A stretch of DNA of 64,000 nt, from contig CM060731.1 in assembly GCA_030704615.1 (NCBI GenBank), forward strand, positions 72,664,001 through 72,728,000. The letters are read 5' to 3'. Source of the DNA: Takakia lepidozioides. Lineage: Eukaryota; Plantae; Bryophyta. The notes under the pieces are model-generated. The model did not search any database. It was not told the DNA's origin and saw only the letters and a list, made by a program, of their open reading frames with translations. How positions within the stretch are numbered: position 1 is the stretch's first letter; each line of letters opens with the position of its first letter. A program made the position numbers and the translations under genes. This document shows positions 1,046 through 42,700 of the stretch, piece after piece.

Positions 1046-2990
1046 AAACACATGATAGATTTTTCCAATGTTGATGGGTGCCGGGATCCCTTGACTTCTA
1101 CTGGTTCAGAATAAGGGCTGAATATAAGGATGTGTGGGAGGGTGGCTGCACACAGATATGAGTTAGAATTGAAGATTGTGCCAAGGGATCCCAGTTTAGA
1201 GGCGAAATGCAAATTAGATGCTTGAGTACGAATCCACCATGTACTTTCCATTTCGTGCCAATGTCAAAGAGGTATGTCACACTCCCATCGTCCTATTGAA
1301 GGCCATGGACCCCTCTGACCTATTTTGGGTACACCTGCTTCATGAGGCGTGCAAAGTCTTGCGGAGGTCAAGGATCTAATTTTCTTTAGATAGCTCATTC
1401 TAGCAGCATGAAAGGTAGTGTCTTGGTGTTTGTGAAGATTGTGCAACTCTGCCCCCTGTGTGCGCGAAATAGTTAGGTCAAATCTTATTTTTCACTGCTC
1501 TGAGTAAAAGTCATCTCACAAGGCCACACTTCTGTGCATGGAGGAGTAGTGAGTTTGAACCCCTCAAAAAACTAAGACATCTCTGACACCAGGATTACGG
1601 GTGCAGTCTATGCTTAACAGCAGGGGTGAGCCCGAGTTCATGCTACCTCAGTGCTATGTCCAACAAGCCCCCCCATTGCAGGTATGCCCTTCACCAGTCA
1701 ACCTTTTCAAAATGTGGCCCTGGCATAATTGTATTCTAAAGTTAGGGCATTATCTTTGAGCATTTAGTGGTTTTATTAATTCATGTAGGTTCTCTATCAA
1801 CTTGCAAAGCAATGAAGAGATCGTGCTGTGATTGTATCCCCTGGGACTTGAACTGGTTACGCAAGCACAGTGGGATTTTAAAGCATAGCCTGGAGAGATC
1901 TCATGGAGGGAGTTGTTATAAATCAAAGATTTATCAAACAAAAACCGGTTTGCGGTTGGAGTGGCTACTTGGAGTTCGTGTCAAAAACGGAAGTAGAACA
2001 TGAGAACGTCTTACAGAGTTTTCGAAAGGCGGCTTATGTAGTTTCTCTGCATTTCACGAAAGACTCGTGGTTTTTCTTCCATTGTCCATTAAAGCATGTG
2101 CCATTTTGAGCTTAAATTCAGGATGTTTTTGGGCACAAAAATGTAACACTTCTAATTGGGGTTATTGTCTGGTGTATCTACAGCCTGGCAATTTCAGTAA
2201 GTTTCAGCAAGATACTCTGTTCTACATTTTCTACAGGTACAAATTGGGTACTATGATCCTTATCGCTTGCTTTTAGTCTAGTGGCAGTTTCTATGCTTCA
2301 AATATTTTTGGTCCCAGTCTTTTGGTGGAGATTACAGTAATGTCTTTCCGTCGTGATGTGGCAGTGGTCTGTTCACCAGGGAATAATCATTCTCTGGACA
2401 CCTAAATTTGTGTTGGTTTGTCTTGATATTCAATCTTTTGTTTGTGAATATTTATAGGGGTAAGTTTGGCCGCCTAGGAATCTTTCTGGCTCGTTGCAAA
2501 AGTCTCGTTCCCTTAGGGGAGGAAAATAGGGGAGGGATCATTGACATAAGACCTCGGTTGGTTATCTAAGGGTTTGTCATTTCTGTGCAGCATGCCTAAT
2601 GATGAGGCGCAACGGTATGGAGCGACCAGAAACAGAGTGTGGAGCGACCAGAAACAGTACGCAGTTGATCCTCAAACTAAAGGACTTATGTAGTTTGCTA
2701 GCTGTGGTAATATGTAGCAAACAGCCTATCCTTCTTCCTTTAAAGTATCTGCGAGCATGTTATGTGTTAATAAGTTTGAGTACAAAGCTCTGTAACTAAG
2801 ATTTGAGTCATGCAGGATTGGAAGGTCCTACAAGGCACAGCTGTTTGTTGGACTTGAGGCTGGCAGCAGGGGTAGTTCCTCCAGCCTCACCACTGCTTTT
2901 GAAGGGCCACCGAGAGAGGGAGTCAATGGGAACTATTCTGGCACTTACAAGGATGTAAAGACAATATGTAAGGCAGGACGGCATAAAGAA

Positions 2991-5141
2991 GTGCTGCACA
3001 TTTTGGACCAACGTGGCATTCAGGTAGACACCAATACATACATCTGCATCTTGCAGGAGTGCATCAACTTGAAAGATCTAGCAGAAGGAACGCGGGTTCA
3101 TGCCCACATTCTCCAATGTGGATTAAAGCCAAACACCTTTCTACTCAGCACCCTTTTCAAAATGTATGCCAGGTGTGGGAGCATGGTGGATGCACAGCAA
3201 GTGTTTTTAAAAATGCCTGAGCGAAGTTTGTTTGCATGGACTGAAATGATAGCAGGATATGCCAAACATGGGCGTGGTAGGGAGGCTCTCATTGTCTATG
3301 AGCAAATGAAAAGGGAAGGGGTGACTCCAGACAAGGTCACGTTCACTTGCATTCTCAATGCCTGTGCCAGCCTAGGGGCCCTTGAAAAGGGCAAAGCAGT
3401 CCATGATGATATCATCAAGGCTGGAATTGTACCAGATATCATTCTGGAGACTGCCCTTGGTAACATGTATGCCAAAAGTGGGAGCGTGAATGATGCGCGC
3501 AAAGTGTTTGACAATATGACTTTACGAGATGTGGTCTCATGGAACGCCATGATTGCAGGATATGCAAAGCATGGGTGTGGTAGGGAAGCCTTCCAGACAT
3601 ATGAGAAGATGCTAAATGAAGGGGTGCCTCGCAACAAAGTCACGTTCATCTGCGTTCTCAAGTCGTGTGCCACACTAGGGTCTCTAGAAATGGGCAAAAA
3701 GGTCCACGCCGACATCAGGAAAAGTGGAATTTCACCTGATATTAATCTGGAAAACACCCTTGTTGACATGTATGCAAAATGTGGGAGCGTAACTGATGCA
3801 CGTCAAGTGTTCAACAAAATGGCTCAACGAGATGTTGTGTCATGGAACGCAATGATCGGGGGATGCGCTCAGCATGAGTGTGGAAGGGAAGCTTTGGAGA
3901 TCTATGAGTGGATGATAGGGGAAGGGGTGAAGCCAGACAACATAACGTTCATTTGCGTTCTCAATGCATGTGCCAGCCTAGGAACCCTGGATAAGGGCAA
4001 AGCGATCCACGCTGACATTGTCAAAGCTGTTATTGCGCCTGATGTCATTTTGGAGACTGCCCTTGCTGACATGTATGCCAAATGTGGGAGCATGAGTGAT
4101 GCACGTCAAGTATTTGACAAAATGGCTAAGCGAGATGTGTGCTCATGGAGCGTGATGATCACAGGATATGCTCAGCATGGATGTGGTATGGAGGCTTTTG
4201 AGATCTACAAGGAAATGATAGGGGAAGCGGTGACACCCGACAGGATCACATTCATTTCCATTCTCAACGCATGTGCCAGCATAGGAGCATTGGAAAAGGG
4301 CAAAGAGATCCATGCTTGCATCAGCGAAAGTGGAATTGCACCAGATATCATCCTGGAGAACACCCTTCTTGACATGTATGCCAAATGTGGGAGTGTCAAG
4401 GATGCTCGCCAAGTGTTTGACAACATGACCCATCGAGATGTGGTCTCATGGAATGCAATGATTGCAGGATATGCCCAGCTTGGGCGTGGTAGGGAGGCTT
4501 TGGAGATCTATGAGCAAATGATGTGGGAAGGGCTGACACCCGACAACATCACCTTCATTTGCATTCTCAATGCATGTGCTAGCCTGGCTGCCCTGGGAAA
4601 TGGCAAAGAGGTTCATGCCGACATCGTGAAGGCCGGTTTCATGCCAGATATCATTCTGGAGACTGCCCTTGCTGACATGTATGCCAAATGTGGGAGCCTC
4701 AAGGATGCGCATCAAGTGTTCGACAACATGGTTCAACGAAACGTGGTTTCATGGAACGTGATTATTGCAGGATATGCTCAGCATGGGTGTGCTTGGGAGG
4801 CGCTTCACCTATTTGAACTAATGCAAAAGGAAGGCCTGAGGCCAGATGAAATTACCTTTGTAGGTGTTCTCACTGCATGTAGCCATGCCGGCCTGGTGGA
4901 TGAAGGTTGTCACTACTTTGATTCCATGAGTGGAGATCATGGCCTCAGTCCCACAGTGGAGCATTTTGGCTGCATGGTGGACCTTCTTGGCCGTGTAGGG
5001 CGATTGGGTGAGGCAGAGGACCTGATTGATAAAATGCCAATCAAACCAGATGATTCGGTTTGGGTGGCCTTGCTTGGTGCATGCAGAATTCATGGTGATG
5101 TGGACCTAGCAGAACGTGTGGCAAAATGCCTTTTCAAGTAA
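2991..5141 (+). CDS. PLS-class pentatricopeptide repeat protein; E/DYW tail degenerate; true start probably upstream or spliced
   Basis: 716-aa ORF of repeated MYAKCGS..DA..VFD.M..RDVVSW / VTF..ILNACA.LGALE.GK motifs ending in E1 (WVALLGACRIHG). The frame is open upstream (KDVKTICKAGRH) without an ATG. Confidence 0.9.
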   Translation: MLHILDQRGIQVDTNTYICILQECINLKDLAEGTRVHAHILQCGLKPNTFLLSTLFKMYARCGSMVDAQQVFLKMPERSLFAWTEMIAGYAKHGRGREALIVYEQMKREGVTPDKVTFTCILNACASLGALEKGKAVHDDIIKAGIVPDIILETALGNMYAKSGSVNDARKVFDNMTLRDVVSWNAMIAGYAKHGCGREAFQTYEKMLNEGVPRNKVTFICVLKSCATLGSLEMGKKVHADIRKSGISPDINLENTLVDMYAKCGSVTDARQVFNKMAQRDVVSWNAMIGGCAQHECGREALEIYEWMIGEGVKPDNITFICVLNACASLGTLDKGKAIHADIVKAVIAPDVILETALADMYAKCGSMSDARQVFDKMAKRDVCSWSVMITGYAQHGCGMEAFEIYKEMIGEAVTPDRITFISILNACASIGALEKGKEIHACISESGIAPDIILENTLLDMYAKCGSVKDARQVFDNMTHRDVVSWNAMIAGYAQLGRGREALEIYEQMMWEGLTPDNITFICILNACASLAALGNGKEVHADIVKAGFMPDIILETALADMYAKCGSLKDAHQVFDNMVQRNVVSWNVIIAGYAQHGCAWEALHLFELMQKEGLRPDEITFVGVLTACSHAGLVDEGCHYFDSMSGDHGLSPTVEHFGCMVDLLGRVGRLGEAEDLIDKMPIKPDDSVWVALLGACRIHGDVDLAERVAKCLFK

Positions 5142-10865: not shown

Positions 10866-11670
10866 TTATGCACCTACAGTGCTCTCCCTAAGAGAATAAT
10901 CTGCATAAAAGATAATACTGCAACTAACAGAGAGTTTTTGTGTGATAGGGTCATAAAGACAATAGCCTTTCATGCCCACGCTTTCTCCATATCCAGTAAA
11001 AAATACACTTGGTAGCTTTGGATCAAGTTTTTTTCTTGTCTCATCTGGAATATGCTCACAGGCAGGACAACCAAAGACACGAAGGTGGTGGATGTCGGGT
11101 TTTGTACTTGTCCAAGCTTCATAAGGGGTCAAACATAGAACGGAAGAAGTGTAAGAGACGTTTTGAAGGTAACATGTTGTAGAAACAGCTTCAGCCCAAA
11201 AAATATGGGGCAACCGGGCTGATTGCAACATGCTCCTAGCAGACTCCACCAGTGTCTTGTATGTTTGAAACTTGGAGAAGACTTCAGATTTCTTTTTAAG
11301 AAAATACACCATAGTATATCTAGAGTAATCATCCACAAATATCAAGAAATAACGTGCACCACCAAGAGATGGTGTCTGCATAGGCCCACACAAATCAGAG
11401 TGCACCAACTGTAACGGAACAGTGGCTCGAACCACTTTATGAATAGGAAAGCTGGACTTGTGATGTTTCCTTAAGCCACAACCCTCATAGAAAGGTAGTG
11501 TAGAGGACAAGGGTAGAAGGCCGGTGACATGGTAGTGGTAGACATATGTTGAAGAACATTGAAATTTAAATATCCCAGTCTATGGTGCCATTTAATTGTG
11601 TCTTCTTCTTCTGAAGAAAAGTGTGACACAGCAGATAGGGAACTGGAACTAGAAAGTAGTCTGATGTCTG
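10866..11670 (-). mobile_element. Ty1/Copia pre-integrase and integrase fragment (3' part of the Copia element at 19302-20710)
   Basis: KWHHRLGYLNF; LQLVHSDLCGPMQTPSLGGARYFLIFVDDYSRY; FWAEAVSTTCY; LRVFGCPA; RKKLDPK. Confidence 0.9.
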
Positions 11671-12960
11671 TGTCATGGTTTTAGTCATGGTTATCTAGAA
11701 TTACCTACTTCTAGTTAACTAGGACATTTTAGATATTTATATTTATATTTTGTGTGTTGGGACTTCATTTGGTCTCACATGCCAAGTGAGGTGTCGAGCC
11801 TCACTTGAGACATGGAGATAGGTTTTCCCCTTGTGAGTGTTGAGGAGGCTCATCTTCTTGTAGTTGAGCCTCCATGAGCTTCTCTCACCTCCATAGCTCT
11901 AGGTATTGAGAGGGAGTGTGTTGAGGGCTTTGTAGGGTGGATTCCTTTAGCAAAGGTGCCCTTGGCTTGACTTAGTTTATGTGATAGAGTGGATTTCACT
12001 TGGAAGGACTAGGGCTTGTTCTTCATGTGATTGCTTCATGCTTTGAGAGCTTTCATTGTCTTCTACTTCTCTCATTTCTCATCTCTTATCACTACAAGAA
12101 GATCACCTTATGTTTGTGAGTGCGGAGTGTAAGGATTAGTTTTGCACTTGTGTTTTAAAGAGGTTGAGAGCTAGGAGAATTTAGCTCTTGTATCATAAGG
12201 CTTGCAAGGGGTTGCAAGGAAAGGTGCTCGAGTATTGCATGCACCAAGGAGTTGGAGAGCTTGAGAAGAAAGCTCTTGAGTCACAAGATTTTGCAAGGAT
12301 TGTAAGGAGGAAGTCTTGTGTGTGTGGAAGCATGGATTCTAGGGTTTGAGAATCCTTTGTATGCATTATGGAGTCGATGGTGTGCGCCATGGCTTGTGGA
12401 GAGTGACTAAAGGCTTGTTAGTGCTCATTTCACTATCAAGCTAGGGTTAAGCAAGTTCAAAGTGTGGATGTTGTGGAAGAGAAGCCAAGGAGCTATATAT
12501 GCTTGGGCTTGAAAACAACAAGGGCAAGCACTTGGAGAGCACTAAGAAGCTCAAGAGGTTTTGAAAGGGAGCATGTGAAGAAATCTTCCAATCATGGTGG
12601 TGTGGAGCCAAGCTTAGGGTGGCATTGGAAGGGCTTGGAGAACATATGGTGGGAAATCCTTGAAGGGAAATCATCATTCAATGTATGCATAGCTTCACCC
12701 TAACTATGTAATGTGACAAGAGGGGGAGGCAATACTTGGCTATTCATGCTCTTGGTAGTGCGAGCTTTGTGGTGGATAGTTGACCAAGCAAGTGGTGCAT
12801 GTGTGGAGCATGCTCGCTTGAGTTTCTAAGTTCAAGTTTGAGAAGGGGAGCTCTTGAACTAGCAAGAGGTGAAGGCCTTTGAGATCCATTTGTGTGTGAA
12901 GTGGAGAGGTGTTGATTCATGTTATGATGAATGAGAGCAACACATAGGCCAAGAGGTCAT
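11671..12960 (+). mobile_element. 5' terminal repeat and leader of a relative of the DNMT-bearing Gypsy element (truncated)
   Basis: Starts TGTCA and the repeat ends TTATCA (12091). Shares the ggctca..tgagcc hairpin, the TGAGTGC-loop hairpin, gcacttgtg and gcatgtgtggagcatg with 32515-33800. Confidence 0.7.
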
Positions 12961-12991
12961 GAAACATGCATTCAAATGACCACGGGAGGCA

Positions 12992-13433
12992 ATGGACCCT
13001 GGTATGGGTCGCGGATTTTTTTTTTATGGAGGATGTAGTTTTGGGGGGAGGAGAGGATTCTGTGGATTTGTTCATGTATTTTGGGCCAAGGTACACCCAC
13101 CGGGAGTGGCAATTATTGCAGACACACGGCCTTGGGTCCTTGATCCATCCTTACATCCTTGTTGTGAACGACGATGATGTAAGGGCGAGAAATTTGGGCC
13201 GCAAAGCCCATATTTATTGTGACGAAAACCCCGATGTGTACGGCAACGTGGCTGGGCTCATCAACAGTTCAGTTACCTTACCGTCGGGCCACACCGCCAA
13301 CGTGTTTTGGGATGAGCGCCATGACGGGGATAGTAGATTGGACCCTAACATCACCACTTTTGTGATGACATGTGCAAGGAGGACCATTAGGGCTGGAGAG
13401 GAGTTGTTTGCAGAGTATGACTTCAGGCGTTAG
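12992..13433 (+). CDS. SET-domain (lysine methyltransferase-like) ORF with a 1-nt frameshift; probably CACTA cargo
   Basis: GMGRGFFF/MEDV..G (motif I, split by the T10 run at 13016-13025), MYFG, GNVAGLINSS (cf. GNxxRFINHS), ARRTIRAGEELFAEY (cf. A.R.I..GEEL..DY). Confidence 0.8.
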
Positions 13434-13798
13434 CCGACTTTCATCATGTGTAGATGGACGTAGGAAGACATTTTGTACATTGAGGTGGCTTCCTCCACCA
13501 TGTATATATATACATAGGCATTGATGTGTATTTGGATGCAGTTTTTCATGCTATATTAAATGGAGTCTGGGTGGACGTTATATGTGAATTCATATATTTT
13601 GAATTATATAGTGTCTCCTTCATGTGGTGAAGCAATGTATGTATTCCCCTCGTGTGCATAATGTGTACTTTGGGTTTTATCCTGTATGACAATGAACAAC
13701 GCCATGTATGGAAATTGATAATGACATGGTTGTTTTTGGCATCTTAGGATGCCGGCCACAACCCCACGACGTTAATTCATGAAGTTCATGATCTTGTC

Positions 13799-16580
13799 AT
13801 GAACCGGGATTTTGTTCCTTCGGAGGGGGGTGCGTATCAAAGGGACCCGACCCCGTCTGAAATGGCGGTCTCCGATGATGAGGACAACAATGACAATGGA
13901 ATTATGCATGAGGATGTGGCAGCAATGGAGGACCTCTTAATGCATCAGATGGGAGATGAGGACACTGACTCTTTGAATGACATGGAAAAAGAAGCCAAAA
14001 CTCCCTTATACGAAGGGGCCAAAGTGAGTAGACTTTCAACCATCTTGTTGTTGCTGAATTTGCAAATCCGGTTTGGCATAAGCAATGTGGGTATGTCCAC
14101 CATAATGTGGATTATTGCGGACTACATCCTTGCCCCACATTTGAAGCCGAGAATGCCACGATCAAGAAAAGAGGCAAGAGCAGCCTTGGATGTTGTGGGG
14201 ATGGGCTATAAGATTTTTCATGCATGTCCATGTGATAAAACCCTGTACTACGGAGAGGATGTGAAACTCACCAAGTGTCCAAAGTGCAACAAAGACCGAT
14301 ATCGGGATGATGTTCAAGGGAAGAAAGCTCCGTGCAAGGTATACCCGTGCCACACACTTGTATATACCTTTTTGCAACCGCTACAAGACGTAAGGTTTTA
14401 CTTAGAGATATGAATGACACTGATTATGATATGGGGCCGACATGGGGATGGTGCCAGAAAATGCACTACTTTCCAATCATCCCGCGACTGCAGGCACACT
14501 ACCGAAGCCCCTCATTGGCAGAACTGATGAGATGACAGCCTCACATCGGAGCCCCCCGGGAAAGGTGTGCGGGCCACAAGATTCACAAGCATGGAGGCAT
14601 ACTGAAGAGATGTGGCCTTTTCTCTTAGAGGACCCACGACATGTCCGCCTTGGCTTCTCCTCGGATGGGGTCAACCCATACTCTGTCCAGTCATGTAGTC
14701 ATTCCACTTGGCCGGTGACCATGGTGAATTACAACATCCCTCCGTATCTTTCAATAAAAAAAGGCCATATCATGTTGGCTGCCATTGTACCGGGTGAGTG
14801 TTCCCATTTCATGCTTATTATTTCTTTGGATTTTACATTAATCTTCTTCTCTTTGGCGCAATTCCGATGGAAGATTGATGAGTGACGTAATCATGTAGTA
14901 AGATGTGTCATTCATTATGAAGTATAATTAGCATGGTGGAGCATTGAAACAATTAATGGTGTGAAAGTCTCATAGGGAAAAAACAAGTGAAAAACAAGGA
15001 CACGTACTTGCGACCTCTAGTTGATAAACTGAAGGAGCTATGGAGGGAGGTCCCGGCATTGGATGCTTCACTTGACCCTATGGCCGGACAATCTTTTCAG
15101 ATGAGAGGCATCTTGTTTTGGACAATGCATGATTATCCAGGTATATTATGTTCTCCATGAGAAACCCGCGTACATTTACCTGTCAAGGGATATTGATGAG
15201 GATTGGGATTGATTGAAGTAACGGCAACAGTCTTCTGTACCGTAGTGGGGTAGATGCACATGTAAACTTTTTGTCTTTCCTAATGTGGCGGAATGTCTAC
15301 AGGACTTACTGTTTGCTCGGGGTTGAGCACTAAAGGGTATCATGCATGCATGCATTGTGGTGATGAACTTGATGCACAAAGCTCCAGCAATCTTCGCAAG
15401 ATGGTGTATCCCAACTACCGCAAGTTTCTTCCTATGAGCCATCATTGGAGAAGAAGAGACAAACACTTGTTTGATGGCAAAGTGGAGTTATGTCCCCTAC
15501 CTGTGACACCATCCGGGCACTTTTGGGAAGACCGATGGAAGGAGGCCCATCCGGAGGAGTCCGGTGAAGTGGAGGTGCCCGGCATGAAGCGGCTTTCAAT
15601 CTTCTACGAGTTGCCATATTGGGCGGTACATATTCCACAAAAACACCATCAATATTGCTATGCATGCATGTGATATTGCATGTTTTGTATGATTTCCATT
15701 GTCACTTTCACGACAAAATAGACGTGTAAGAATTTGTGGGTGGGGATATGTGTAGGACCTGAAGATTCGTCATCTTCTAGATCCCATGCATATTGAGAAG
15801 AATGTTTGCTTGTCCTTTTTTCGTGTTCTTCATGGCACGTCGGCAAAGAAGGAAGTGGCTGCGAAAGGAGATTCTCTCGGTGATAGAATAGAACTTGAGG
15901 AGCAGGGTCGCATGCCCCATCTATAGGCCGAAGAAAATGGTTTGGACCCAAAGGGTGTTGTACGGTGGAAGTATAGGCGTGCACCTTGGCAATGGACAAA
16001 GGAGAAATACAAGAAAGTGATAGCCACCATAGGAGCTGTCCGAACACCAACTGGTTATGGGTCATCCCTCCAAGAATGAACGGGGCCGGCAATCGAAGCC
16101 TCTTCCACTAAGTGCACTACCAAGTGCACTTGGATGTCAAAGAAAGAGGGAAGAAGGTGCATCTCCAACATACACATGACCACCGCCGCCTCCTTCTTCA
16201 TGCGTGGAAAGTCCGCTTCCTCCAACTCTTTGGAGCAAATCCACCGGAACAATGCTCACAATCTATAGACTGTCTCGCGAACCTCGGGAGTCAATGTCCC
16301 ACGTATTGCAATGGGCAAGATGTCTTGCAATAGATTGTGGTAGTCATGAGACTTCAAACCATGGACCCCGTCTTACCTTGAGCGATACATGAAGACTTTG
16401 AAAGCACATGTAAGACAAATGACACACCCGGAGGGTAACATGGCGGAGGGGAATACATTGCAAGAGGCTATGTTCTACTGCATGGAGTACTAGGCAGGGG
16501 TGGATAAGGAAGCCCCTCCGATGTGGAAGGAAGATGAGGATGTACGAATCAAGGACATCGTTTTGCCCAAAAATTCAAGA
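13799..16580 (+). pseudogene. CACTA TnpD/Tnp2-family transposase (Transposase_21 and DUF4218-like), intron-containing and disrupted
   Basis: HACPCD..LY..CPKC..DRY; HYFPIIPRLQ; DPRHVRLGFSSDGVNPY..STWPV..NYNIPP; WTMHDYP; SIFYELPYW; LDPMHIEKN; GLKSHDYH; LERYMKTLK..PEG. Confidence 0.88.
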
Positions 16581-18927
16581 GGGTAAAATTACCCATCATG
16601 GTGATTAACCAAGCGCATGAGTTCATACTGAAGAACACCCCATCCATACATGAGTGGGAGACAAGATACAATAACCTTGTTCAGCAACGACAGGAGGAGA
16701 CGGTTGCGTGGAGGCGGAACCATGCAAGGGCGACTACACGCGCTCCGCAAGCAAGGGGCCGGCGTAGGAATGTGCCTTCACAAGAATTGCCCATGGAATT
16801 GTAGCCTCTAAGTTCATTATGCATTGGCTTCTGATTGAAGTAGAGGATAGCATTGCGAAAGGTAAGGTGGTTTCAGATTTGGTGCAAGACATTGCAAGGG
16901 GTCCATCTCAATTTGCAACCTCATACATGGCGATTTGGGTTCATGGTCGTGCGGATGTTGGAGAGGAAGATGAAGACATGGTCATTGAAACCGAGGTGGA
17001 AGATGATTCAGATGTGCCTTTTGGTGACCAGGCCATTTATGACAATGACTCTGATGAGGAGCAAGACTTGCAACTTAATGAGGACGAAGAAGCTCCGGAA
17101 TATGATGGTCAAGTTGATTAGACACGTAATCAAATCTACATAATAATTCTCGTACATAATTGTACCCATCCCTTCGATTGATTGTACATGTACATGCCTG
17201 TAGCTTATTTCTATGATTGATTAATGAAAAATCCATGAAAAAAATCCTTTGTAGGTGTGGCGATCTAAGAATGATTCTAATGAAGTTGTGACTCGAAAAA
17301 ATGACTCTAGGATTGTTGAGTTTTTGTACGAGGGCAAGAATGTTGGAAGATATGGTTCTTGTTCTACAAGTGCTGACCAAGACTTACCCCTGCAAACCCT
17401 TCAATCGATTTGGTTACCATGATCTCGATGCAACAAAAAGAATCTTCGAAATTGGTGTGAAAGACAACAATGTTGCTAAAGCCATTGCCAAAGCAATCTA
17501 CCCTCAACCCTCTAATCCCATGGCCCTTCCCTTTTCCTTTCCTAGTGTCCCCACCCCCTCTTCCTGCCCTTTGTCTTTAACAATAAGGCCGCCCGGGTTG
17601 ATCACGGTCTCCCACATGCAAGATAGACCTGTTATATTGTAGCACAGAAGGAGGACTAAAAAGATTTGCAACAATGGATCCATTCAGCTTGGCCTCTGCC
17701 ATGACCTTTGCAAAGACACAGAAAAGGCGATATTGCGATTCCCCGCCGTCGCAGACCTGTTGGGGCATCACAATGCCGTCGCAAGGTGACCCCTGGAGGT
17801 CCAACCCCCTACATTTACAATATCTATGATTGCGGATTTGTCCGACGTAATGATTTTTGTTTTAGCTCTATTTTGTTTTGTGAATGCAAACCCCAGACCA
17901 CTACATCCATGGAAAACATTGGACCAAACAAAAAAAAAAACAAAAAAAAACAAAGAGTTTCTTTCACTCACTATTGCGGAACTCTCTATGGAGAGTGCAT
18001 GAAGTTGAAAAGAACTCAACTTGGGAGTGCAAATGAGGGAAGAAAATATGGTTTTCAGTCCAAATGATTTTTATTCACTCCCAAAATTTGCACACGCATT
18101 GCAAACGCTGTCATTAAGCATATGGCTTGGGAACAGAATAAAACAAAATCATGTGCATGTGCAAAAAAACATCATCCCACCTGAGGGGATGAGGAGGAAG
18201 ATGTGGTGGCGGCCGTCAAGTTTGCTGGGATCGGCATCAATGGTGGTAAAAAGAACTCTGGCCCTGTTATACAGCAAGAGAGAAGGAGCACTATAAAGAT
18301 TGGAAGAAGGGGATCAATTGACCCTGGCCTCAGCCATGACCTTTGCAAAGAGACACTAAACAGGGCCTCTCTGCGACTCCCGGACGTCGCAGGCCCGTCG
18401 CATTACTGCTGACGGGCGACTTCTAGCAGTCGCAAACCCCACGAGGTGGCGTGCCCTCGCTACGTGGCGGCCAAGGGGGAAATGGCATCATTGCGACTCC
18501 CCAACGTCACGGCCCTGTAGGAGCGTCGCCCCAACAGACATATGACTGCGGGGAATTGCAACCTCGCCATTGTGGCATTGCGGCGACGTCTGGACGTCGC
18601 AAAACCTAGCACGACCTGACTCGGCCCTCCCCACGCGCCTAAGTGTGTGGGGGTGTTCCCGACAATCGCAGCCTTGCGGGAGCGTCGTAGAGGGTAAGTG
18701 CGACGTCCGGGCGTCGCAACCCTCAGCTCGCTGGCGGGTCATCCCCAACAACAACGACATGGCGGAATCGCAAGCAGGCGAAGCGTCACCGGAGCGGTGC
18801 GGCGGCGACAGGCCGACGTCGCAATTTCCGGGCCGGGCGCCTACGCGACGCTGCAGTCGCAGGAGGGTCGTCGCGTCTGGCGCACCCGAGGTCTCGGCGT
18901 CGCTAACCCCCCCTAAACGTAGTAGTG

Positions 18928-19301
18928 AGTACTGGGACTGGGAACAAGAATAGCTCGAACTTGTGTTGGCGAGATTGAAGAGTGTCCAGTCTCGCCTCCC
19001 ATATATACTGGCTACTAGGAAGTTCCCTAAGAAGCTTCCCCAATGGAGGTTTCTTGATGGAGAAGTTTCTTTAAACAAATGAGGTATCTTGATGGAGAAG
19101 TTTCCTCAAAATGAAGCTTCTTGAGCAGTTTCCCAAGTTATTCTCGATAATTTGGTATACTCCCGGTAACTTGGTAATTAATGATAACTTATGGTAAATC
19201 ATGGTAGATCATGATAAATCACAGTAATTTTCGATAAAATGGTAATTTGGTAACTTCTGATATTTACTCCTGGTAAGTTCATCTGGGCTATGTCCGTGAC
19301 A
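18928..19301 (-). mobile_element. Partial LTR of the same family as the Tcn1-like element at 28933-46837
   Basis: Reverse complement begins TGTCACGGACATAGCCCAGA and matches the first ~400 bp of LTR 28933-29542; cut by the CACTA end. Confidence 0.92.
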
Positions 19302-20710
19302 ATGCCTATAAGATAAAGTCTCCCAGCTTGTGGACAATGAAATATTATTTTCTTACCAGTGGGAGTAGAGTTACGATAGTACAGCGACCTGAAGAAAATT
19401 GTACTCTTTCCCTTACTTGTAAGTTGACCCACAGAAAGCAAATTCTTGGCCAAAGCTGGGACATATAAGACATCATCTATAATGGTCACTTGACCAGTAG
19501 ACACCTTGACAGAAATAGTCCCAATGCCTGTAGCTTGATGCTGACCATCATCACCCATGTATATAGTATGAGGTTTTGGTAATGACTCATAGATTTGAAA
19601 CCACCTTTGTCTAGTTGTCATATGTTGGGTGGCTCCTGGATCTAAGTACCAAGTCTCATGAAAGTCTTGACTATTGTCAGAGACTGGAGTAAAGAGATGC
19701 AATGGTTATGGATCGGAGGTAGCAATATTGGCTTGTGGTCGATATGCATGGGGTTTATTCACACCATTTGCTCTATTTTTCAGCCGTTTCCGGCATTCAG
19801 GGGCTTTGTGGTTTGTATGCCGCAATAACGGCATACCACTGTTGTTTTGTCCCAAGATTGGGAAGACCCAAGTCCAGTTTTGGGAAGGGAGCTTGAGCCT
19901 TCAGCGGATGAGGGTCTACTGGATACGTCGTCGCTTGATGGGCTGATTTTTAACATTAAAGACAGCTGATTTAGGATCAGTATCAGCTTTAATCATCCCT
20001 TCTTGGAGCATGTTGGCAACTAGGTCTGCCAAAGTTAAATTTGGCAAATTACCGTGAGTTGAAACAAATAAGCGCCAAGAAGAGGGAAGGGCTGAAAGCA
20101 AAAACATAATTTGCTGGTCTTTAGTAATTTGTAGACCTTCAATGGCAGCCTCATCAAGTGTGCCTTCCCATTCTTCCATAAACTCGGTGACAGACTGTGA
20201 TTCGGAGAGGGTTAGATTTATGATTCGCTTCTGTATTGCGACTTGAGAAGCTTTATTCGTATGTTGGTAGGTTGCCTTGAGCTTATCCCATACCTCCTTT
20301 GCGGTGGTAAGAACTCTCACCCACTGGATTTGACGGTCTCCATAGTGCAAGATGGTGTTGGCACGAGCCTTGCCATCTGGCACTTTCCAAGCGGCTTGTA
20401 AAGTTGCATCTGCAGCACCCGGGTCAGGATCGCTTCCAGAAACAACTTGCCACAATGCGGATCGCATTTGTAGCATCTCCAACTTAATGATCCAAACTGA
20501 GTAATTGACGCTGGTCAACTTCTCAATTTGATAAGCTCATGGAGGTGAACTTGAGGAAGCAGCCATGAGAGACCTTCTGGTCTATGGCAGAGCGTACGCC
20601 CTTGCTTATACAGTTTCAGTTGCTATCTTTTACAATCACGCTCTGATACCATGTAGAATTATGTCACAGGCTCATTGAAGCAATGCAAGAGAGAGAGTAA
20701 ATTCTCTACA
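19302..20710 (-). mobile_element. Ty1/Copia 5' part: LTR end, tRNA-iMet PBS, gag, zinc knuckle, protease
   Basis: PBS TGGTATCAGAGC (20640-20651); gag NYSVWIIKLEML..LW.VV, AKEVWDKLKATY, LLSALPSSW; protease WYLDPGATQHMT; DVLYVPALAKNLLSVGQL. Confidence 0.9.
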
Positions 20711-23742: not shown

Positions 23743-24160
23743 CTCCTTGAGCTCCTCAAGCTTGAACACAGACCATAGCCATCACCATGCCTGCGGTTTC
23801 TGAATCCCAACTGCCACAGCAAAATTTTGAGAAAACATCCTGGAGTTTTACATGCTAAAAATATTTCTCGCTGTCATCCTTCTTCGAGGGCAAGTAATAG
23901 AAAAGGCCCGGGAGTTGAATGCGCCCTGGGCGGGTGTGCCTGCGTGGCCCGCCCCTCGCCCACCTAGGGATAGCAAAAAGGCTGTGTCGCAGAACTCCGG
24001 TCCGACCCCAAGCTCTTGTCAGTCGAATCTGGTGTAGCATTCTCCGTGCTGGAAGAGGAGGCATTGTTATGTATATTGTATGGTTGCACTGCATTTGATG
24101 CCCCATGACTCTCCAGAGTTCGTCTGACTGCATTTGTGAGCGAGGTCCTCCGCACTGAGC

Positions 24161-26368
24161 ATGGTTCTGGACGCAGAATACAGTTTGTACAAGAGGTTGG
24201 GTTCTAGACTAGCTATTTGGTCATGCAGAGCACTGGAGTTTCTCGTCTGGAATAGGACCCTTTTGTTTGTTAGGAATCAGATTCATAGAAAGGGTATTAG
24301 CCGTGGCACTTTCAATACCAGCACCGCTTTCCCTGGAGGACGAAGGCAAGCAAAAGGGAGTGAGGTAACAGACACATGGGGAACTAATGATGTGAGTACA
24401 TTGTGTAAGGAGGGGCCTAAACGAGAAATGCCTAAACGAGATGTGGTCTCATGGACTGCGATGATTGCAGGATATGCACAACAAGGGAAAGGTGAAGAGG
24501 CATTCGAATGTTTCCGGCAAATGCAACGAGAAGGGGTGAAGCCAAACAAGGTCACCTTCGGTAGCATTCTCAAAGCATGTGCCAGCCCTGCAGCTCTGGA
24601 ACGGGGCAGGGGGGTCCATGCGGGCATCATCAAAGCTGGACTAGACTCAGATATCAGGGTTGCAAATGCACTTGTCAGCATGTATTGCAAGTGTGGGAGT
24701 GTGGTGGATGCACACAAGGTGTTTGGAAAAATGGGTGAAAGAGACGTCGTCTCATGGACTGCTATGATTGCAGGATGGGCTGAGCATGGTCACGGTAAGG
24801 AGGCTTTCGATATTTTTTGGCAAATGCAGAAAGCGGGCGTTCAGCCAAACAAGATCACCTTCATGAGCATCCTGACTGCGTGTGCCGGTCCAGCAGCTCT
24901 GACACAGGGTAAGCAGGTCCATGCCCACATCATCAAAGCCGGATTCGAATCAGATGTTCGTGTGGGGAATGCCCTTGTCAGCATGTATGCCAAGTGCGGG
25001 AGTATTGTGGATGCACGGCAAGTTTTTGACACAATGCCTGAAAGGAACGTGGTCTCGTGGACTGCCCTCGTCAACATGTATTGCAAGTGCGGCAATGTCT
25101 TGCACGCTCGCCAACTGTTCAACAACATGCCCAATCGCAACGTGGTCTCATGGAATGTGATGATTGCAGGCATGGTTCAGCATGGGGATGGTGAAGAGGC
25201 TTTTGAACTCTTTCGGCAAATGCAGCAAGAAGGCGTCAAGCCAGACAAGGTTACATTTATGAGCATCCTCAGCAAATGTGCCAACCTAGCAGCCTTTGAA
25301 GAGGGCAAGCGCGTCCATACTCAAATCCACAACGCAGGACTTTCGTCAGATGTGTCTGTTGGAAATGCCCTTGTTGATATGTATGCCAAGTGCGGGAGTG
25401 TTGTGGATGCTCGGCAGGTATTCAACAAAATTCTGAACCGGGATGTGATCTCATGGACTGCAATGATTATCGGATATGCCCAGCATGGGCTTGGTGAAGA
25501 GGCTCTCCGCCTTTTTGAACAGATGCAACACGAAGGGGTGAAACCTGACAAGGTCACATTTGTTGGTGTTCTTTCAGCTTGCAGCCATGTGGGCCTGGTG
25601 CATGAAGGTCGTCGTTACTTCAACTCCATGAATAGAGATTATGGCATCACCCCAACTGCGGAGCACTATGGTTGCATGGTTGACCTGTTTGGACGTTCAG
25701 GGTGCTTGATTGAGGCAGAGAACTTCATAAGACAACTTCCAGTTGGACCAGGTCCCTCAGTGTGGGGGGCCTTGCTTGGTGCCTGCAGAATCCATGGCAA
25801 TGTTGGGCTAGCAGAGCGTGCTGCAGAATGTGCTCTCAAGTTGGAACCACACAATGCTGCAGTGTATGTGCTGCTATCTAATATTTATGCGGCAGCTGGT
25901 AGGTGGGAGAAAGTGGCGAAGGTGAGGAAAATGATGGAGGACAGAGGTGTGAAGAAAGAGCCGGGATACAGCTGGATTGAGGTCAAGAATAAGATCCACA
26001 AGTTTGTTGCAGAAGATAGATCACACCCACAAACCGAGGAGATTTACGATGAGTTGGAAAGATTGACTAAGAAGATGAAGGAGGCAGGATTTATGCCTGA
26101 TACACGGTTCGTACTGCACGACTTAGAAGAGCACCTCAAGGAACAGCATCTCTGCCACCACAGCGAAAAGCTGGCCATTGCTTTTGGGCTCATCACCACC
26201 CCCCCAGGATCATCTATCTATGTAACTAAGAACCTCCGAGTATGCGGTGACTGCCACACTGCCACAAAATTCATCTCGAAACTTTTCAACAGAGATATTG
26301 TTGCAAGGGACACCAGCCGATTTCATCACTTCAACAATGGAGTGTGTTCTTGTGGAGATCGGTGGTAA
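24161..26368 (+). CDS. PLS-E-DYW pentatricopeptide repeat protein, probable organellar C-to-U RNA editing factor
   Basis: PLS repeats, E1/E2, PG box (KKEPGYSWIEV), HSEKLA, CGDCH, ends CSCGDRW; start codon uncertain. Confidence 0.95.
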   Translation: MVLDAEYSLYKRLGSRLAIWSCRALEFLVWNRTLLFVRNQIHRKGISRGTFNTSTAFPGGRRQAKGSEVTDTWGTNDVSTLCKEGPKREMPKRDVVSWTAMIAGYAQQGKGEEAFECFRQMQREGVKPNKVTFGSILKACASPAALERGRGVHAGIIKAGLDSDIRVANALVSMYCKCGSVVDAHKVFGKMGERDVVSWTAMIAGWAEHGHGKEAFDIFWQMQKAGVQPNKITFMSILTACAGPAALTQGKQVHAHIIKAGFESDVRVGNALVSMYAKCGSIVDARQVFDTMPERNVVSWTALVNMYCKCGNVLHARQLFNNMPNRNVVSWNVMIAGMVQHGDGEEAFELFRQMQQEGVKPDKVTFMSILSKCANLAAFEEGKRVHTQIHNAGLSSDVSVGNALVDMYAKCGSVVDARQVFNKILNRDVISWTAMIIGYAQHGLGEEALRLFEQMQHEGVKPDKVTFVGVLSACSHVGLVHEGRRYFNSMNRDYGITPTAEHYGCMVDLFGRSGCLIEAENFIRQLPVGPGPSVWGALLGACRIHGNVGLAERAAECALKLEPHNAAVYVLLSNIYAAAGRWEKVAKVRKMMEDRGVKKEPGYSWIEVKNKIHKFVAEDRSHPQTEEIYDELERLTKKMKEAGFMPDTRFVLHDLEEHLKEQHLCHHSEKLAIAFGLITTPPGSSIYVTKNLRVCGDCHTATKFISKLFNRDIVARDTSRFHHFNNGVCSCGDRW

Positions 26369-35600: not shown

Positions 35601-38285
35601 GTGCCACAAGTTGTTGGGGATAGTGCCGGTTTGAGCACTAGCGATACTAGTGGGTACACGAGACGAGGTGTGCGATTTAGGCCACCTTCACCTCCTGTGT
35701 CTTCTACGGAAGGTTCTGATTCGGATTGTGAATCAGGAGGACTCGTACCGGCGGTGCAAGTGGTTTCCTTGCCATTGTTGTGGGACACAATGGAGGAGAT
35801 GTATGGAGCTACCAAGGGGCTACAAAGGTACTCTGGGGCGGTGGGCACCATCGAGTTGGATGATTTTATCCAAGAGTTTGATAGTTGGTGTGATTTGCAG
35901 CAAATGCGCAATCCACAACTATTTACGCCTTTCATGGCATAGAAGGGGCTATTTCAGTACCTTGAGGGGCCGCCTATGGATGATTACCATGAGTTCAGGC
36001 GGGGGCATGAGGTTGAGATCAAGGAGTAGAGGATGTACTGGTCACCCGACTATGTCTCCATCACTAGGGGCACTAGAGCCACGAGGGCAGTGGCTACACC
36101 TGCCGCTGCACCGGCAGCTTCAGCAAGCAACAGTGGGACTAGTGGGACTGGTGGTACAGTAGCTACAATGTCCACCCAAGCCACTACCGCACCAGCACTA
36201 GTACCCGTGCCTGCCTTCAACCCTATTGTGGAGTTCTTCGAAGAGTTGAGAGGGAACTACCAAAGGGTGATGATAGAGAAGTTGCGAAGCTTGCAAGAGT
36301 TCCAACGGAAGCCAACCGAGAGCTTGAGGAAGGCTTTCACTCGCATGAGGCGCTTGATAAATGTAACCCAAGGGGTTACGGAAGCTTAGGTAGTCCAATT
36401 CTGGTATGGGATATTGGACAAGGAGCTGAGGAGAAGGGTGCGGGATGCAACTCTCCTACAAGCGGCCCAACCCACCTTAGCAAATATGTTTTTGCTGGCA
36501 GAGCGGATAGAGCTCAACATGGTGGAGGAACGAGTGGTCATGGTGGGATTTACTAAGGAGACACCACGGGGTAGTGGTGCTCCTAGCCAACCACTACCTC
36601 AATGTGCTCAAGGCAACAAGGGGGCTCAGGTGAAGCTCAGGGAAGGGCAGAGAGGACCTCAGATGCAGGGGTCTCTCCCTTCATTTGCAGGTCAACAACA
36701 GGGGGATGTGGTGTGCTGGACATGTGGAGGACCCCATGTCAAGAAGGATTGCCCAGAGAGAGGCAAAGGGCCGGCACATGCACAGCCTGCACAGTTGCAG
36801 TGTGGGCATTGTGGCAAGCACGGGCATGGAGAGGCCCAGTGTTATGGTTTGCATCCTGACTTGCGTCCAGGCCAGTTCCAAAGGAACAATGGTGGCCGGA
36901 GGCAAGGTGGAGTAGCCCAGAGAGGACGAGGTGGCCAGGCACGAGGTGCAGGCCAAGGGCAAGCTCAACATGGCCAAGGTCGCTGAGGTCAGGGTGTTGA
37001 CCAAGGCATGGCCAACCGGCTTCAGCAGCTAGAGCAGAGGCTCGCTGCCATGGCTACAGCTCAGGTGGTACCGGCTCCAAGGCCGGATGGTCCACCTCCT
37101 GCTCCTAAGGGAGGAGATATGGGAGGCATGGGATTCAAGTGTGGAGCAGCACTACCACTAGTGCAGGTGGAGTCTGCTGCAGCCGTGACTCGAGGAGCAG
37201 CACGAGTTCTTGAGCCACAAGGTGCAGAGGTGGAGTCGTGGGGAGGCAAGCCGTTACTATGCCATTGGGGAGAGCTACACGGGTAGCACCACTACCTAGT
37301 GTTGCCAAGGCTTTGGCAGCTAGTGTGCTGCTAGGAGCGGCCACATCTATGTGTCAGGCTCCATTGTTCTCGGCTACCATGATTGCGACGCCGGGGGTAA
37401 GACCAGCTGAGGTGTTCAGGCTGGCAGCTACACTCTGTGAGAGTGGGGAGGTTACTTCATCTTCTGCGGAGATAGTGGGAGGTGTAGGGCCAGAGGGATC
37501 CTCGGATTTGAGGGTCAAGACTGCCACGGCGGCGCCATGGCAAGCTGCAGCTGCGGTTGATGGAGCTGCCAGCTAGGCCAGCCATTGAGCGCGCCATGGT
37601 GACACCTGGAGTTGTCATGTTAGACAACCAAGATGGCATTTTCTGTTTAAGTGGACCGGTAGGCAAGAGGTACCGGCCACTGCGAGTCTCGTTGGACTCA
37701 GGAGCTCAGCCATTGATGCTGGGCAGAGCTACTATTGCAGGCTTGGGCCTCACGGAGGCGGATATGGAGCCTTATCATTTCCAGATACAGACGTCTCTGG
37801 GAGGATCGGAGCAGGCTCGGGGCATGACACGGCGTGAGTTGGCTATCAGACTATGGCCGGATTACCCTACAGATGGCTCAGTGATGCGAGCCAAGGCCAT
37901 TGTGATAGACGCGGTCTCGTACGATGTCCTGGTTGGTGGGGCAATGTTGTACCCCATGGGCTTCACCCTGGATTTTTGGGAGGAGTCAGCTTCTTATAGG
38001 CCTGGATGGCTGTTAGGGGAGGGCCAAAGTATGCAGCTCCCTGTGACGTTTATAGGAGGAGTTGCGGTTGCCCAGCGGGGCAAGATGCCGACACTAGTAG
38101 CATTCACAGCTGCAGTGACTTGGCCTAGAGAGTTGCTTGAGGGAAACGCTCATTCAGAGGATGACATACCTCCGGGAGAACAGGATGACATGTATGATAT
38201 AGCGGAGTTGCCTGCCATGGTTGCTCTGACTCCATTGTGGGGCACGAGCAAGGTTTTGCAGCAGGTTGTTGATCGACGGGTGTAA
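35601..38285 (+). pseudogene. Gag (two CCHC knuckles) and aspartic protease of the DNMT-Gypsy
   Basis: LDDFIQEFDSWC; CWTCGGPHVKKDC; CGHCGKHGHGEAQC; protease SLDSGAQ...YDVLVG; in-frame stops and one frameshifted stretch. Confidence 0.85.
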
Positions 38286-38417
38286 CAAGCCTGGGTGGAG
38301 GCTTTTGTACCATCAGGAGAGGAGGAGACTGCGGGGATTGCACCAAGACCACCTCAGTTGTCTCCATTGGACACCACACCTATTGTGTGGCAGTATCCGG
38401 ATGAAGGCATTTGTTTT

Positions 38418-39350
38418 CTGGACTTGTTTGGCGGGATCAGCACCAGATTGGCTGCTGTATTACAGGCAGATGTACGAGTTCGGCGTTACCTGTATGTGGA
38501 GAGGGATGAGACTGCACGACGCGTTTCACTTCGCCATATTACTCAGTTGGTGCAGCGGTATCCTGAGTTGTTGCCGGTGGCTGTAGTTCGTGGATATTAG
38601 CAGGCCTTGCCAGCAGACATTTTGATGATGGGGGCGCAGGATTTGGAGCGGGTTGGGTCCATTGATCTGGTAGTGGCAGGTTGGCCTTGCCAAGGGCATT
38701 CATCAGCCGGGCATAGCAATGGATTGCGAGACTCGACGTTGGGTCTGCTTTGGAAGATGGTGCGGGTTTTGCGCCACTTGCAGGTTTATCAAGCTGTATC
38801 TCCAGCATACATCTTGGAGAATGTGCCACTGATGGGCGATTCTCGGGCCAGGGTGATGGCCAGTGTGCATCAAGTCTGGTCGTGGCTTGGGTCAGCAGTG
38901 TTGCTAGATGCAGCTACAGTGGGGTCACGGGCTCATCGTCCACGGCTATGGTGGACTAACTTGATGCCACCCGCACTGCTCAAGCGTGCATTTGATGGGG
39001 TGCAGCGGCCAGCACATCTCACAGTGGATAGCATTCTGGACACAGGGAGGAAGTCTCAGCGTGTGAGACACGATGACCGTTCGCCTTTGGCAGTCGTCAA
39101 CAAGGTGGGTCAACCACGAGCAGCATTACCTACACTGCTCAGCTTCCCAGGATCGCATGCTTTCCGGGATAGTGGACCTGGCCTCCTGTGGGATGCTCAG
39201 TTGCAGCAGTTAGTGGAGTCTAATGCTGACGAAAGTGAGCGGGCAATGGGTTTTACCACTGGTACCACGGCGGTGTCGTCTCTTTCTGAGGCATCACGTC
39301 GTCAAGTGTTGGGGCAAGCAATGGATCTCAATTGCTTGACCTGGATTATC
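38418..39350 (+). CDS. C5-cytosine DNA methyltransferase domain (DNMT3-like) within pol; one premature stop at 38598-38600
   Basis: Motif I LDLFGGIS, II YVERD, IV GWPCQGHS (PCQ at 38685-38693), VI YILENV, VIII AHRPRLWWTN, IX ERAMGF, X RRQVLGQAMD; same reading frame as the protease. Confidence 0.92.
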
Positions 39351-39749
39351 AGCTTGGCTATGGCTGAGCAATGCAGAGTGCGGAGTACACTTCCCTCGAT
39401 GGTCTCTTTGCCTACCGAGATGGTACAGGCAGTGAGTGGGGGCAAGCATGTGAGGACCACGGGGTGCAGGCATCCATGGCACACGTGGGAGGTGCTCGAG
39501 GTTCAGAGGGAGTTGGCAGCCAAGGTGGCGGTGATGGATAATTTTTCTCGGGTGGAGGAAGTCCTTGAGGATGAGATGATGGGGCAGGATGAGGCCTTGT
39601 CACTGACTGAGCAGGTAGGGAGTACTGCTCAAGAGGTTGCAACATAGCAACCACTGGATGCGTCCTCTACCTCTAAGCCCACTGGACTTAAGGTTGCAGT
39701 TACGGAGGACAATTGGGAGCCTGACATTGGACCCATTGTCACCGGAGAA

Positions 39750-42700
39750 GAGAGACGACGTATACGGCGGTTCCTGAGGGCTTACAAGAATTGCTTTGCC
39801 TTCAGTTTGAAGGACTTGGGAGCACTGAAGGGTCAAGAGATCCGTATTGAGTTGGCCACTGACACTCCAATCTTTCGGAGACCCTATAGATACAGTGACA
39901 TGGAGAGGTCTTTGATTCAGATGAGGACTCAAGATCTCTGGGAGGCAGGTTGGGTGGAGCTCTCTGGTGGAGCTCTCTGGTGTAGAGTATGCTTCAGCCA
40001 TAGTGATGTCAGCCAAGAAGGATGTCTATGGCAATTGGACGGAGTGTCGCGCACCTCACTTCGGTAAGCTCCCCCCCCTCAAGTCATAGTTACTCGCTTG
40101 ATGCGCGCGCCTAACTCCCAACCTGGCTGCCGGGCCAACTTGGAGCTTCGGCTGCTCACCGGGACATAACGGTCCCCCCTTAATCTCCCAAAGAATCCTC
40201 CAACGATTTAAAACCAGCGGAATTCCCTTTGGTAGTTGGCAGTCCGGAACAGCTCCCCACTCTTTGGTCGCTTTCCGGCTCGCTCGCTTACTCACTAGCT
40301 TTTGGTCACCAACGGGCTTGCACCGTTCTCGGGGTTACTACTCCCTATATATACTTCTGTAGCTGTCCGCGGGGGTTTCACAAACAACCATGCCATTTTA
40401 TGGCGAACCACCACGAACACCCTCGACTCCCGGTGATGAGTCGCGGTGAGTCTTGGCCCACTCACCAGGGCCCCTATGGACCGTGATGAGTCCCAAGACT
40501 CCCCACGACTCCCACCACGAGGTCTCCGCCCCAGGGTGAGTCCTATGCCACCCCCACTAAGTCCCGCTAAGCTACCACCACCCCTTGTGGAGCCACCCCC
40601 ACCGCAACCCGGTGTGCGGGGCTCCACCTAGTGAGCGCCTCCGCCTCATTGAGTGCTTTGGGCACTCAAGGGTGCTTCAGCCCCCCATACTTATCGCTGC
40701 CACTGCCCCCACCACAGGGGCAGCCCCTCTTGTGTCCCGACCCCCTGCCCTCAAGGCAAAGGGCCGCGACACGGAGAGACGTATGTGCAGTGATTACTGG
40801 CCTGTAAATCGTCAGACCAAGTCCGATAAGTATGCCATGCCAACACCAGAGGAGATCTTTGATGCCATCGGGCATGCTAAGGTCTTTAGCACTTTGGATT
40901 TACAATCCGGATATCACCAATTGCCAATCAAGGAGGCGGACAAGCAGAAGACGACATTCTGGGGGATCAATGAGCACGGCAAGGATTGCCTATATCAGTG
41001 GCGGTTCTTACCATTTAGGCTTAAGAATGCTCCTGCAGAGTTTCAGAGAGTCATGGATAGGATTCTAGCAGGGGTGGACTTTGCTCGGTGCTACATAGAT
41101 GACATCATCATCTTTAGTGTTACGGTGGAGGAGCATGAGAGACACCTTCAGGTGGTATTGGAGCGCTTGAGAGCACACGGATTGAAGTTGCATCCGGGGA
41201 AGTGCAAGTTTTTCCACAACCAGATTGAGTATCTAGGTCACATGATATATCTTGGAGGACTGGGGGTACAGCAAACTAAGGTAGAGGCCATTGCACAAAT
41301 TCCACGCCCCACGGATGTGAGCCGAGTTTGAGCTTTCATGGGGTTGGCAAACTATTATAGACGGTTTGTCAAGGGATTTAGTGCCATTGCAAAGGCTCTA
41401 ACCAAGCTGACCAAGGTGGACCAGGAGTGGCAGTGGGAAGATGAGCAGGAACGAGCTTTTCAAGAGCTCAAGGCAAGGTTGACCTCGGCGCCTATCCTAA
41501 GACGACCTATCAGGGGGCGTCCCTTTCAGCTGCATACGGATTGGAGCATGTTGGGGCTTGGAGCGGTGCTCACACAGGTGGATGATGAGGGAAGAGAGTT
41601 CGTAGTGGCTCATATTAGCCGCTTGAACAACGCTGCAGAGGCTAAGTACAGCTCATATGAGGGAGAGTGCTTAGCTGCAGTGTGGGTTGTGACACACTTC
41701 AGGTGCTATCTATACGGCAATCTTTTCACCTTTGTCACGGATCACCAGCCACTCAAGTGGTTGATGGAGTCAGACAAGCTTACGGGGAAGCTTGCACGGT
41801 GGGCACTCATACTCCAGGAGTATGACTTTCAGGTTGTGCATCGACCGGGTTTGGTCAATCGGGATACGGATGGATTGAGTCGCAATCCATGCACGAGCCA
41901 GCAGGATGACACTGGAGCTCGGTGGCATGGTGAGACGGACGAGGAGATGGTGTCGGGATGGCACGCATCTGCATTTTTGTGTATCTTGGCATCGGGAGGT
42001 CAGGTTAGACCTACAATAGGGATGACTGTAGACGGAGTGTCTGAGGACCCTGAGGCTAGTGATGAGCCAGGTGGTGCCAGAGATATACATGAGGATTCGG
42101 CTGTGTTGGACTACCTCCGCACGGGAGACACGGCAGCCACTACGGCTGCCAGGGAGAGGGATCGGATCTTGCAACGAGCCAAGAGATTCAAGTGGGAGGG
42201 GATACACCTACTTCGAGTGTGGGAGGATGGTCGGGTGAGGATTGTGCCTCACCCCACACAGCGTGCACGGTTAGTGCGGCATGCCCATGAGGAGTTGGGG
42301 CATTTTGGAGTGCGACGCACTCACAGTTTACTGCAGGGGCAGTATTGGTGGCGTGGTATGCATACAAAGGTGCAACAGTTCGTGGCTAGGTGCATGGTGT
42401 GTGACAGGGTGCGTGCTTCATTCAACGCCCAACAGTTGCATCTTTTACCAATCATGGGATTGGGCTACATGTGGAGTCTTGACTTCGCAGGACCGTTGCC
42501 ACTGACTATGCGCCACCACAGATATGTGTTGGTAATGGTGGAGCACTTCTCCAAGTGGATTGAGTTGGTTCCATTGCCTGACAAAGCTAGTGAGGGGGCT
42601 GCGTATGCATTCTTGGATCGTGTGCTTAGCCGATTTGGTGCTCCAGCTGAGGTACTCACGGACCAAGGAGAGAGTTCTTGGGGAGTTTCAGGCTTTGTGT

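Follow-up and report, generated by a model that had tools for sequence, protein, structure and literature searches.

Why a reading frame resembling a SET domain should lie just upstream of a transposase gene is the question raised by a 64,000-nucleotide stretch of the genome of Takakia lepidozioides (Bryophyta; NCBI GenBank assembly GCA_030704615.1, contig CM060731.1, positions 72,664,001 to 72,728,000 of the forward strand), referred to below, at its full length, as the window, in whose numbering all positions are given. The original prediction, made from the letters alone, held that an open reading frame (ORF) at 12992-13433 encodes a compact SET-domain protein carried as cargo by a CACTA transposon. 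The interpretation that is cautiously favoured here is that the window contains a dead remnant, deleted at its 5' end, of a SET sequence from a repeated CACTA (EnSpm, Tnp2-type) family. Intact copies of this family would encode a predicted lysine methyltransferase, which is likely produced from an alternative last exon and likely marks the chromatin of copies of its own element, thereby maintaining their activity.

The SET remnant and its relatives

The sequence is present as it had been described, with an ATG at 12992, a run of ten T at 13016-13025, a subsequent frame containing YFG, GNVAGLINSS and GEELFAEY, and a stop codon at 13431-13433, and its SET fold is supported by the Pfam match and by fold comparison. 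The stop-to-stop frame 12963-13433 matches the Pfam SET family (PF00856) with an E-value of 9e-4 and 20.1 bits, below the gathering score of 22.4. Against a profile built from 44 relatives, with the window row excluded, the window frame scores 114.9 bits as it stands, compared with 4.3 bits for the best of 500 shuffles, and a chance ORF is thus rejected; the former score is not fully independent because the relatives were originally found using the window ORF. The Atlas comparison placed SET in 29 of 30 matches, a weak result (recognition 2252, below 2300), while a phmmer search of the PDB with the single window ORF yielded no SET match and a word-index search with this ORF no match.

Removal of one T from the run restores the frame, as had been proposed, and raises the profile score to 125.8 bits. 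The same one-base deletion occurs in contigs of other copies from the sets X1, X2 (one contig, depth 1052 of the 4372 summed there) and X5, the contigs having been drawn from sequencing runs of three studies in one comparison and four in another. In these copies the run (13016-13025, + strand) is one base shorter and position 13016 is a C, which gives motif I, the GxG motif of S-adenosylmethionine (SAM) binding, as G-R-G-L-F; relatives have GxGLF, and in the window copy the motif is out of frame. The frames join at the predicted MYFG, but its Met is private to the window copy, the others having Pro. Majority variants of the other copies alter five residues, three of which restore conserved positions, and the score then reaches 133.9 bits. 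The window copy is dead regardless of whether the additional T arose by mutation or through an error of assembly.

The claim of a compact whole gene did not survive, since the ORF is a 3' coding remnant (12985-13433, +) that is cut on its 5' side and ends four codons past the Tyr at the catalytic position. Contigs of other copies start aligning at 12985, with other sequence before it, and run on upstream in frame, so the ATG at 12992 is rejected as a start. The 30 letters preceding 12985 in another copy, read by hand in the SET frame, contain F-W-G-R-M-Y at the same spacing from motif I as in the relatives.

Searched exhaustively with the window ORF, a set of 1.84 billion proteins returned 19 hits at E<=0.001 with 30-56% identity, forming one divergent family, and 16 of these first hits match PF00856 at E<=0.1. 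One protein, P0018, proved to be a false hit with unrelated flavin mononucleotide (FMN)-binding repeats and was removed from all alignments; alignments A3 and A4 also omit the fragments P0002 and P0015 as well as P0054, P0056 and P0057. A profile search retrieved 37 proteins out of 2,859 candidates. The named relatives come from one liverwort, Calypogeia fissa (two), and two ferns, Ceratopteris richardii (three, with three further cluster members) and Adiantum nelumboides (one), with no seed-plant, animal or bacterial name among them. The six Ceratopteris models share 76-93% identity and are scattered by their locus tags, as expected of transposon copies. In the tree, the fragment P0002 is the only protein that clusters with the window protein, and the fern and Calypogeia clades lie apart from the two. 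The absence of any longer fused relative from 7,998 candidates carries little weight, and the N6-adenine methylase family PF01555 gave no match in the 30 relatives scanned, these being short ORF calls and the window lacking its 5' part.

Scans of prokaryote genomes gave no match, and no donor of the SET domain was found. Five loci from a metagenome scan were all chance matches to glycosyltransferases. The viral scan with the A5 profile returned nothing, and that with A6 two generic algal-virus-like SET genes on a very long branch. The algal-virus-like contigs L006 (8113-8634) and L007 (4123-4644) carry a 174-amino-acid SET gene with weak similarity to the window family (E 8.5e-8 in a small search).

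It is established that CACTA elements often take up gene pieces, and the window copy is a pseudogene, as would suit a host-gene fragment captured passively, in Pack-CACTA style, and of no use to the element. Such a capture is highly improbable: the protein search gave only a divergent family, the named relatives are either dispersed near-identical models or linked to a transposase, and the motifs are conserved from liverwort to ferns.

Predicted activity and expression of intact copies

RFINH is the canonical consensus of SET domains, and GLINSS in the window had been taken as an alteration of RFINHS. The difference is real, but INSS is a family-wide trait and not a decay mutation: among the 44 relatives the Asn is kept in 42 and the His in none. 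The canonical motif is therefore not that of this family, which lowers the case for a canonical SET domain and not that for a SET fold; LegAS4 likewise does without the His. The C-terminal GEEL...Y is present, with the catalytic Tyr in all 39 rows long enough to include the position. Comparison with solved structures recovered the SET fold, with matches to SETD8, Set1/COMPASS, EZH2, SETD7 and Legionella LegAS4/RomA; these share only 15-24% identity with the window family, are not orthologous to it and do not indicate a substrate. The viral vSET is not among the fold rows listed. Intact copies are accordingly predicted, from motifs and fold, to be SAM-dependent lysine methyltransferases, and that they are catalytically active seems probable.

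Several points weigh against an active histone methyltransferase. The Arg of RFINH is replaced by Gly in 37 of the 44 relatives, only 7 of the first 19 hits pass the PF00856 cut-off, and the Cys-rich post-SET region is absent, as the original prediction had observed. The fold matches are tied over H4K20, H3K4 and H3K27 enzymes and so single out no substrate, and low-share variants among the copies are mostly non-synonymous, the pattern of decaying copies. RomA, moreover, retains the Arg and requires an ankyrin domain for activity (PMC10653858). A retained fold might instead act on a non-histone protein, for instance a silencing factor of the host or the transposase itself, or serve as a non-catalytic binder, to which the replaced Arg and His, the missing post-SET region and the presence of PR domains and SETD7 among the fold matches would be well suited. 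This alternative is considered unlikely, given that GxG, the Asn and the last Tyr are conserved and that the rows with the highest Z in the fold comparison are histone methyltransferases, though tied.

Downstream of SET and on the same strand, as predicted, lies a Tnp2/TnpD-type CACTA transposase, a pseudogene at 13748-16600 (+, end approximate) with several introns and in-frame stops that matches PF02992 (E 1e-24 and 2e-12). This Tnp2-family transposase and the subterminal repeats are features of a CACTA/EnSpm element as defined in PMC4158355. Between the two lies an AT-rich (37% GC) spacer of 314 bp (13434-13747, +), which ends in a T-rich tract and an AG, likely a splice acceptor. The gap of about 370 bp given originally holds for the nearest Met, some 366 bp past the SET stop, but the transposase frame is already open from 13748.

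One contig, record 18 of X5, extends between 14222 and 12985 across the spacer and SET, showing 32 differences and a single gap, namely a T run one base shorter, and continues beyond 12985 with 362 unaligned bases; this different upstream flank indicates that SET and transposase are linked in another copy. That the family is repeated follows from 191 X2 contigs over 541 bases, depth here not being copy number. The proposal that SET belongs to the transposon thus holds, whereas its status as a separate accessory ORF is less likely than that of an exon. In X6, record 27 skips exactly the 119-nt GT-AG intron at 14339-14457 (+) that is retained by DNA contigs (X1 record 4, X5 record 19), and a family member is therefore likely transcribed and spliced; that X6 is RNA is a guess plus this one spliced contig. 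The X6 SET contig covers 13125-13401, its strand and origin not being evident from the contig, and X8 matched only 38 bases. In X2, X5, X6 and X8 there are also contigs whose match is confined to the 3' end of SET (13359-13475) and is flanked on either side by different sequence; these could stem from a second family or from a derivative element.

In the Adiantum model P0057, a Cys/His motif is followed by the N-terminal half of SET, then by an acidic linker with a transposase-like segment (29% identity to the window transposase over 69 amino acids, pairwise E 0.001) and finally by DUF4218, a CACTA-associated domain. That SET forms one exon of the transposase unit is more likely than that it is a separate ORF upstream, because the transposase frame opens exactly at the AG after the T-rich tract, because P0057 puts the Cys/His motif before SET and because TnpA and TnpD are products of alternative splicing in some Spm families (10.64898/2026.08.24.746577). 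In intact copies, SET would be made as an alternative last exon of this unit, the Cys/His motif of a shared first exon would target the enzyme to copies of the element, and the enzyme would mark the chromatin of these cognate copies, keeping the element active. A first exon shared in this way and targeting the enzyme is judged fairly plausible, while a histone substrate with an anti-silencing effect, such as TnpA and VANC have, is put forward more tentatively, by analogy.

Against splicing of this kind, the acceptor has a pyrimidine score of 0.65, equalled by two of the ten other AGs listed for 13434-13800; only one contig among the pieces listed bridges SET and transposase; and no transcript joining an upstream exon to SET, or skipping SET, is present among the contigs. 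P0057 is a gene model only, with weak matches to the SET profile (E 3e-4) and to the transposase, its Cys/His motif has no Pfam match, and it is the only relative whose genomic context could be seen. SET could, as in Plavaka PAG2, be an accessory gene with its own promoter and start that precedes the transposase gene. In favour of this, the sequence closes with a stop codon of its own, ORFs of 150-290 amino acids with an upstream Met are predicted for many relatives, the transposase could begin at a Met near 13799, and TnpA-like products of Arabidopsis Spm occur in both spliced and separate-gene layouts (10.64898/2026.08.24.746577). The opening of the transposase frame at the AG and T-rich tract, its lack of the usual N-terminal Cys/His domain, and the Cys/His motif ahead of SET in Adiantum make a separate gene unlikely, and the alternative last exon is retained as the favoured arrangement.

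Arrangement of the nested elements

The locus is a nest of three elements, of which the CACTA element (12985 to 18927) is the innermost. The outermost is a minus-strand Copia retrotransposon (10869-20536) split by the insertion, with gag and protease at 20536-19302 and the integrase region at about 11668-10869; one X2 contig has its empty site, joining 11654 to 19302. Inside it is a long terminal repeat (LTR)-like repeat in two pieces. The left one (11671-12986) starts with TGTCA and, where it adjoins the truncated SET sequence, overlaps it by 2 bp, and the right one (18928-19301) ends with TGACA and has a 5-bp flanking duplication with one mismatch; 53 X2 contigs have loose ends behind 19301. 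LTR contigs leave the window sequence at 12986 and SET contigs enter it at 12985, from which it follows that a deletion took the left end of the CACTA element with the 5' part of SET, and that SET is not part of the neighbouring LTR.

The right terminal inverted repeat (TIR) is at 18915-18927 and starts with CACTA on the minus strand; as the original prediction had noted for the left TIR, none lies upstream of SET in the window copy, and no full-length copy of the element was seen. Five to six subterminal repeat units with GCGAC...GTCGC cores (families D1, D2 and D4) occupy 17726-18909, and in the same 3' subterminal region 17628-17770 and 18263-18398 form a duplication offset by 635-638 bp. 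Within the transposase, 16073-16416 is rearranged, by inversion or replacement, with an opposite-strand joint at 16119/16416 and loose ends at 16073 and 16374. Past the transposase, an acidic frame of 117 amino acids (16768-17121, +) without a Pfam match is possibly a last transposase exon or a remnant of ORF2. The window copy is dead, having a truncated and frameshifted SET and a transposase with in-frame stops and a rearrangement.

Elsewhere in the window, four pentatricopeptide repeat (PPR) genes with a 303-bp repeat spacing (2796-5138, 24140-26365, 52421-54787 and 56797-59079; Pfam check on one) have the layout known from organellar RNA-editing factors. In a Ty3/Gypsy-type element (36390-42699, +), a domain of the C5 DNA methylases (PF00145, E 1e-10) lies at 38601-39644, after the protease and before the reverse transcriptase; the earlier statement that SET would be a second epigenetic writer on a transposable element in this window is supported as far as this retroelement is concerned. 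Gypsy elements bearing DNA methyltransferases have been described from the charophyte Klebsormidium (PMC5890265), whereas the host here looks to be a land plant, probably seed-free to judge from the PPR arrays and the relatives of the SET family.

Comparison with other transposon-encoded regulators

Transposon-borne SET domains are already known, and SET in a land-plant Tnp2-type CACTA element is a real feature and a variant of these; the literature search, which did not extend to Repbase, found no report of it in the source parts available, and PMC11982613 contained nothing that bears on it. If the proposed mechanism is true, a histone-writing transposon enzyme common to liverworts and ferns would be a counter-strategy unlike those of VANC and TnpA, the function of transposon SET domains, so far only suggested, would become directly testable, and some fern and liverwort models annotated as SET domain-containing would be transposon genes that inflate host SET family counts. 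It is a rather speculative extension that, across seed-free land plants, an old CACTA lineage joins, by splicing, a first exon with DNA-binding function to an active SET methyltransferase of non-canonical type, which writes a histone mark on its own copies against host silencing.

Plavaka PAG2 of red algae also has SET (PF00856) within a CACTA-superfamily DNA transposon, for which modulation of transcription has been proposed as a suggestion only (bioRxiv 10.1101/2025.02.11.637652). There, SET and an N6-adenine methylase form a fusion that belongs to a three-gene cassette in Plavaka elements of 17-19 kb, whereas the window family, compared by description and not by sequence, has a lone SET next to a Tnp2 transposase (PF02992) and is found in land plants. 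HarbingerS and oomycete MuDR elements carry SET genes (cited in PMC12730594), and capture of SET by Helitrons is cited in the Bostrychia preprint (bioRxiv 10.1101/2025.02.11.637652); these are likewise transposon-borne and, as far as descriptions allow a comparison, differ in superfamily and host. TnpA/TnpD of Spm, which in some families arise when the transposase gene is alternatively spliced, and VANC of VANDAL share with the window family an element-encoded epigenetic regulator (10.64898/2026.08.24.746577, PMC12730594); a whole-word search for "SET" and "methyltransferase" in the available text of the Spm preprint (10.64898/2026.08.24.746577) found no such domain. TnpA and VANC are described as DNA-binding regulators that cause hypomethylation, whereas the product of the window family would be an enzyme.
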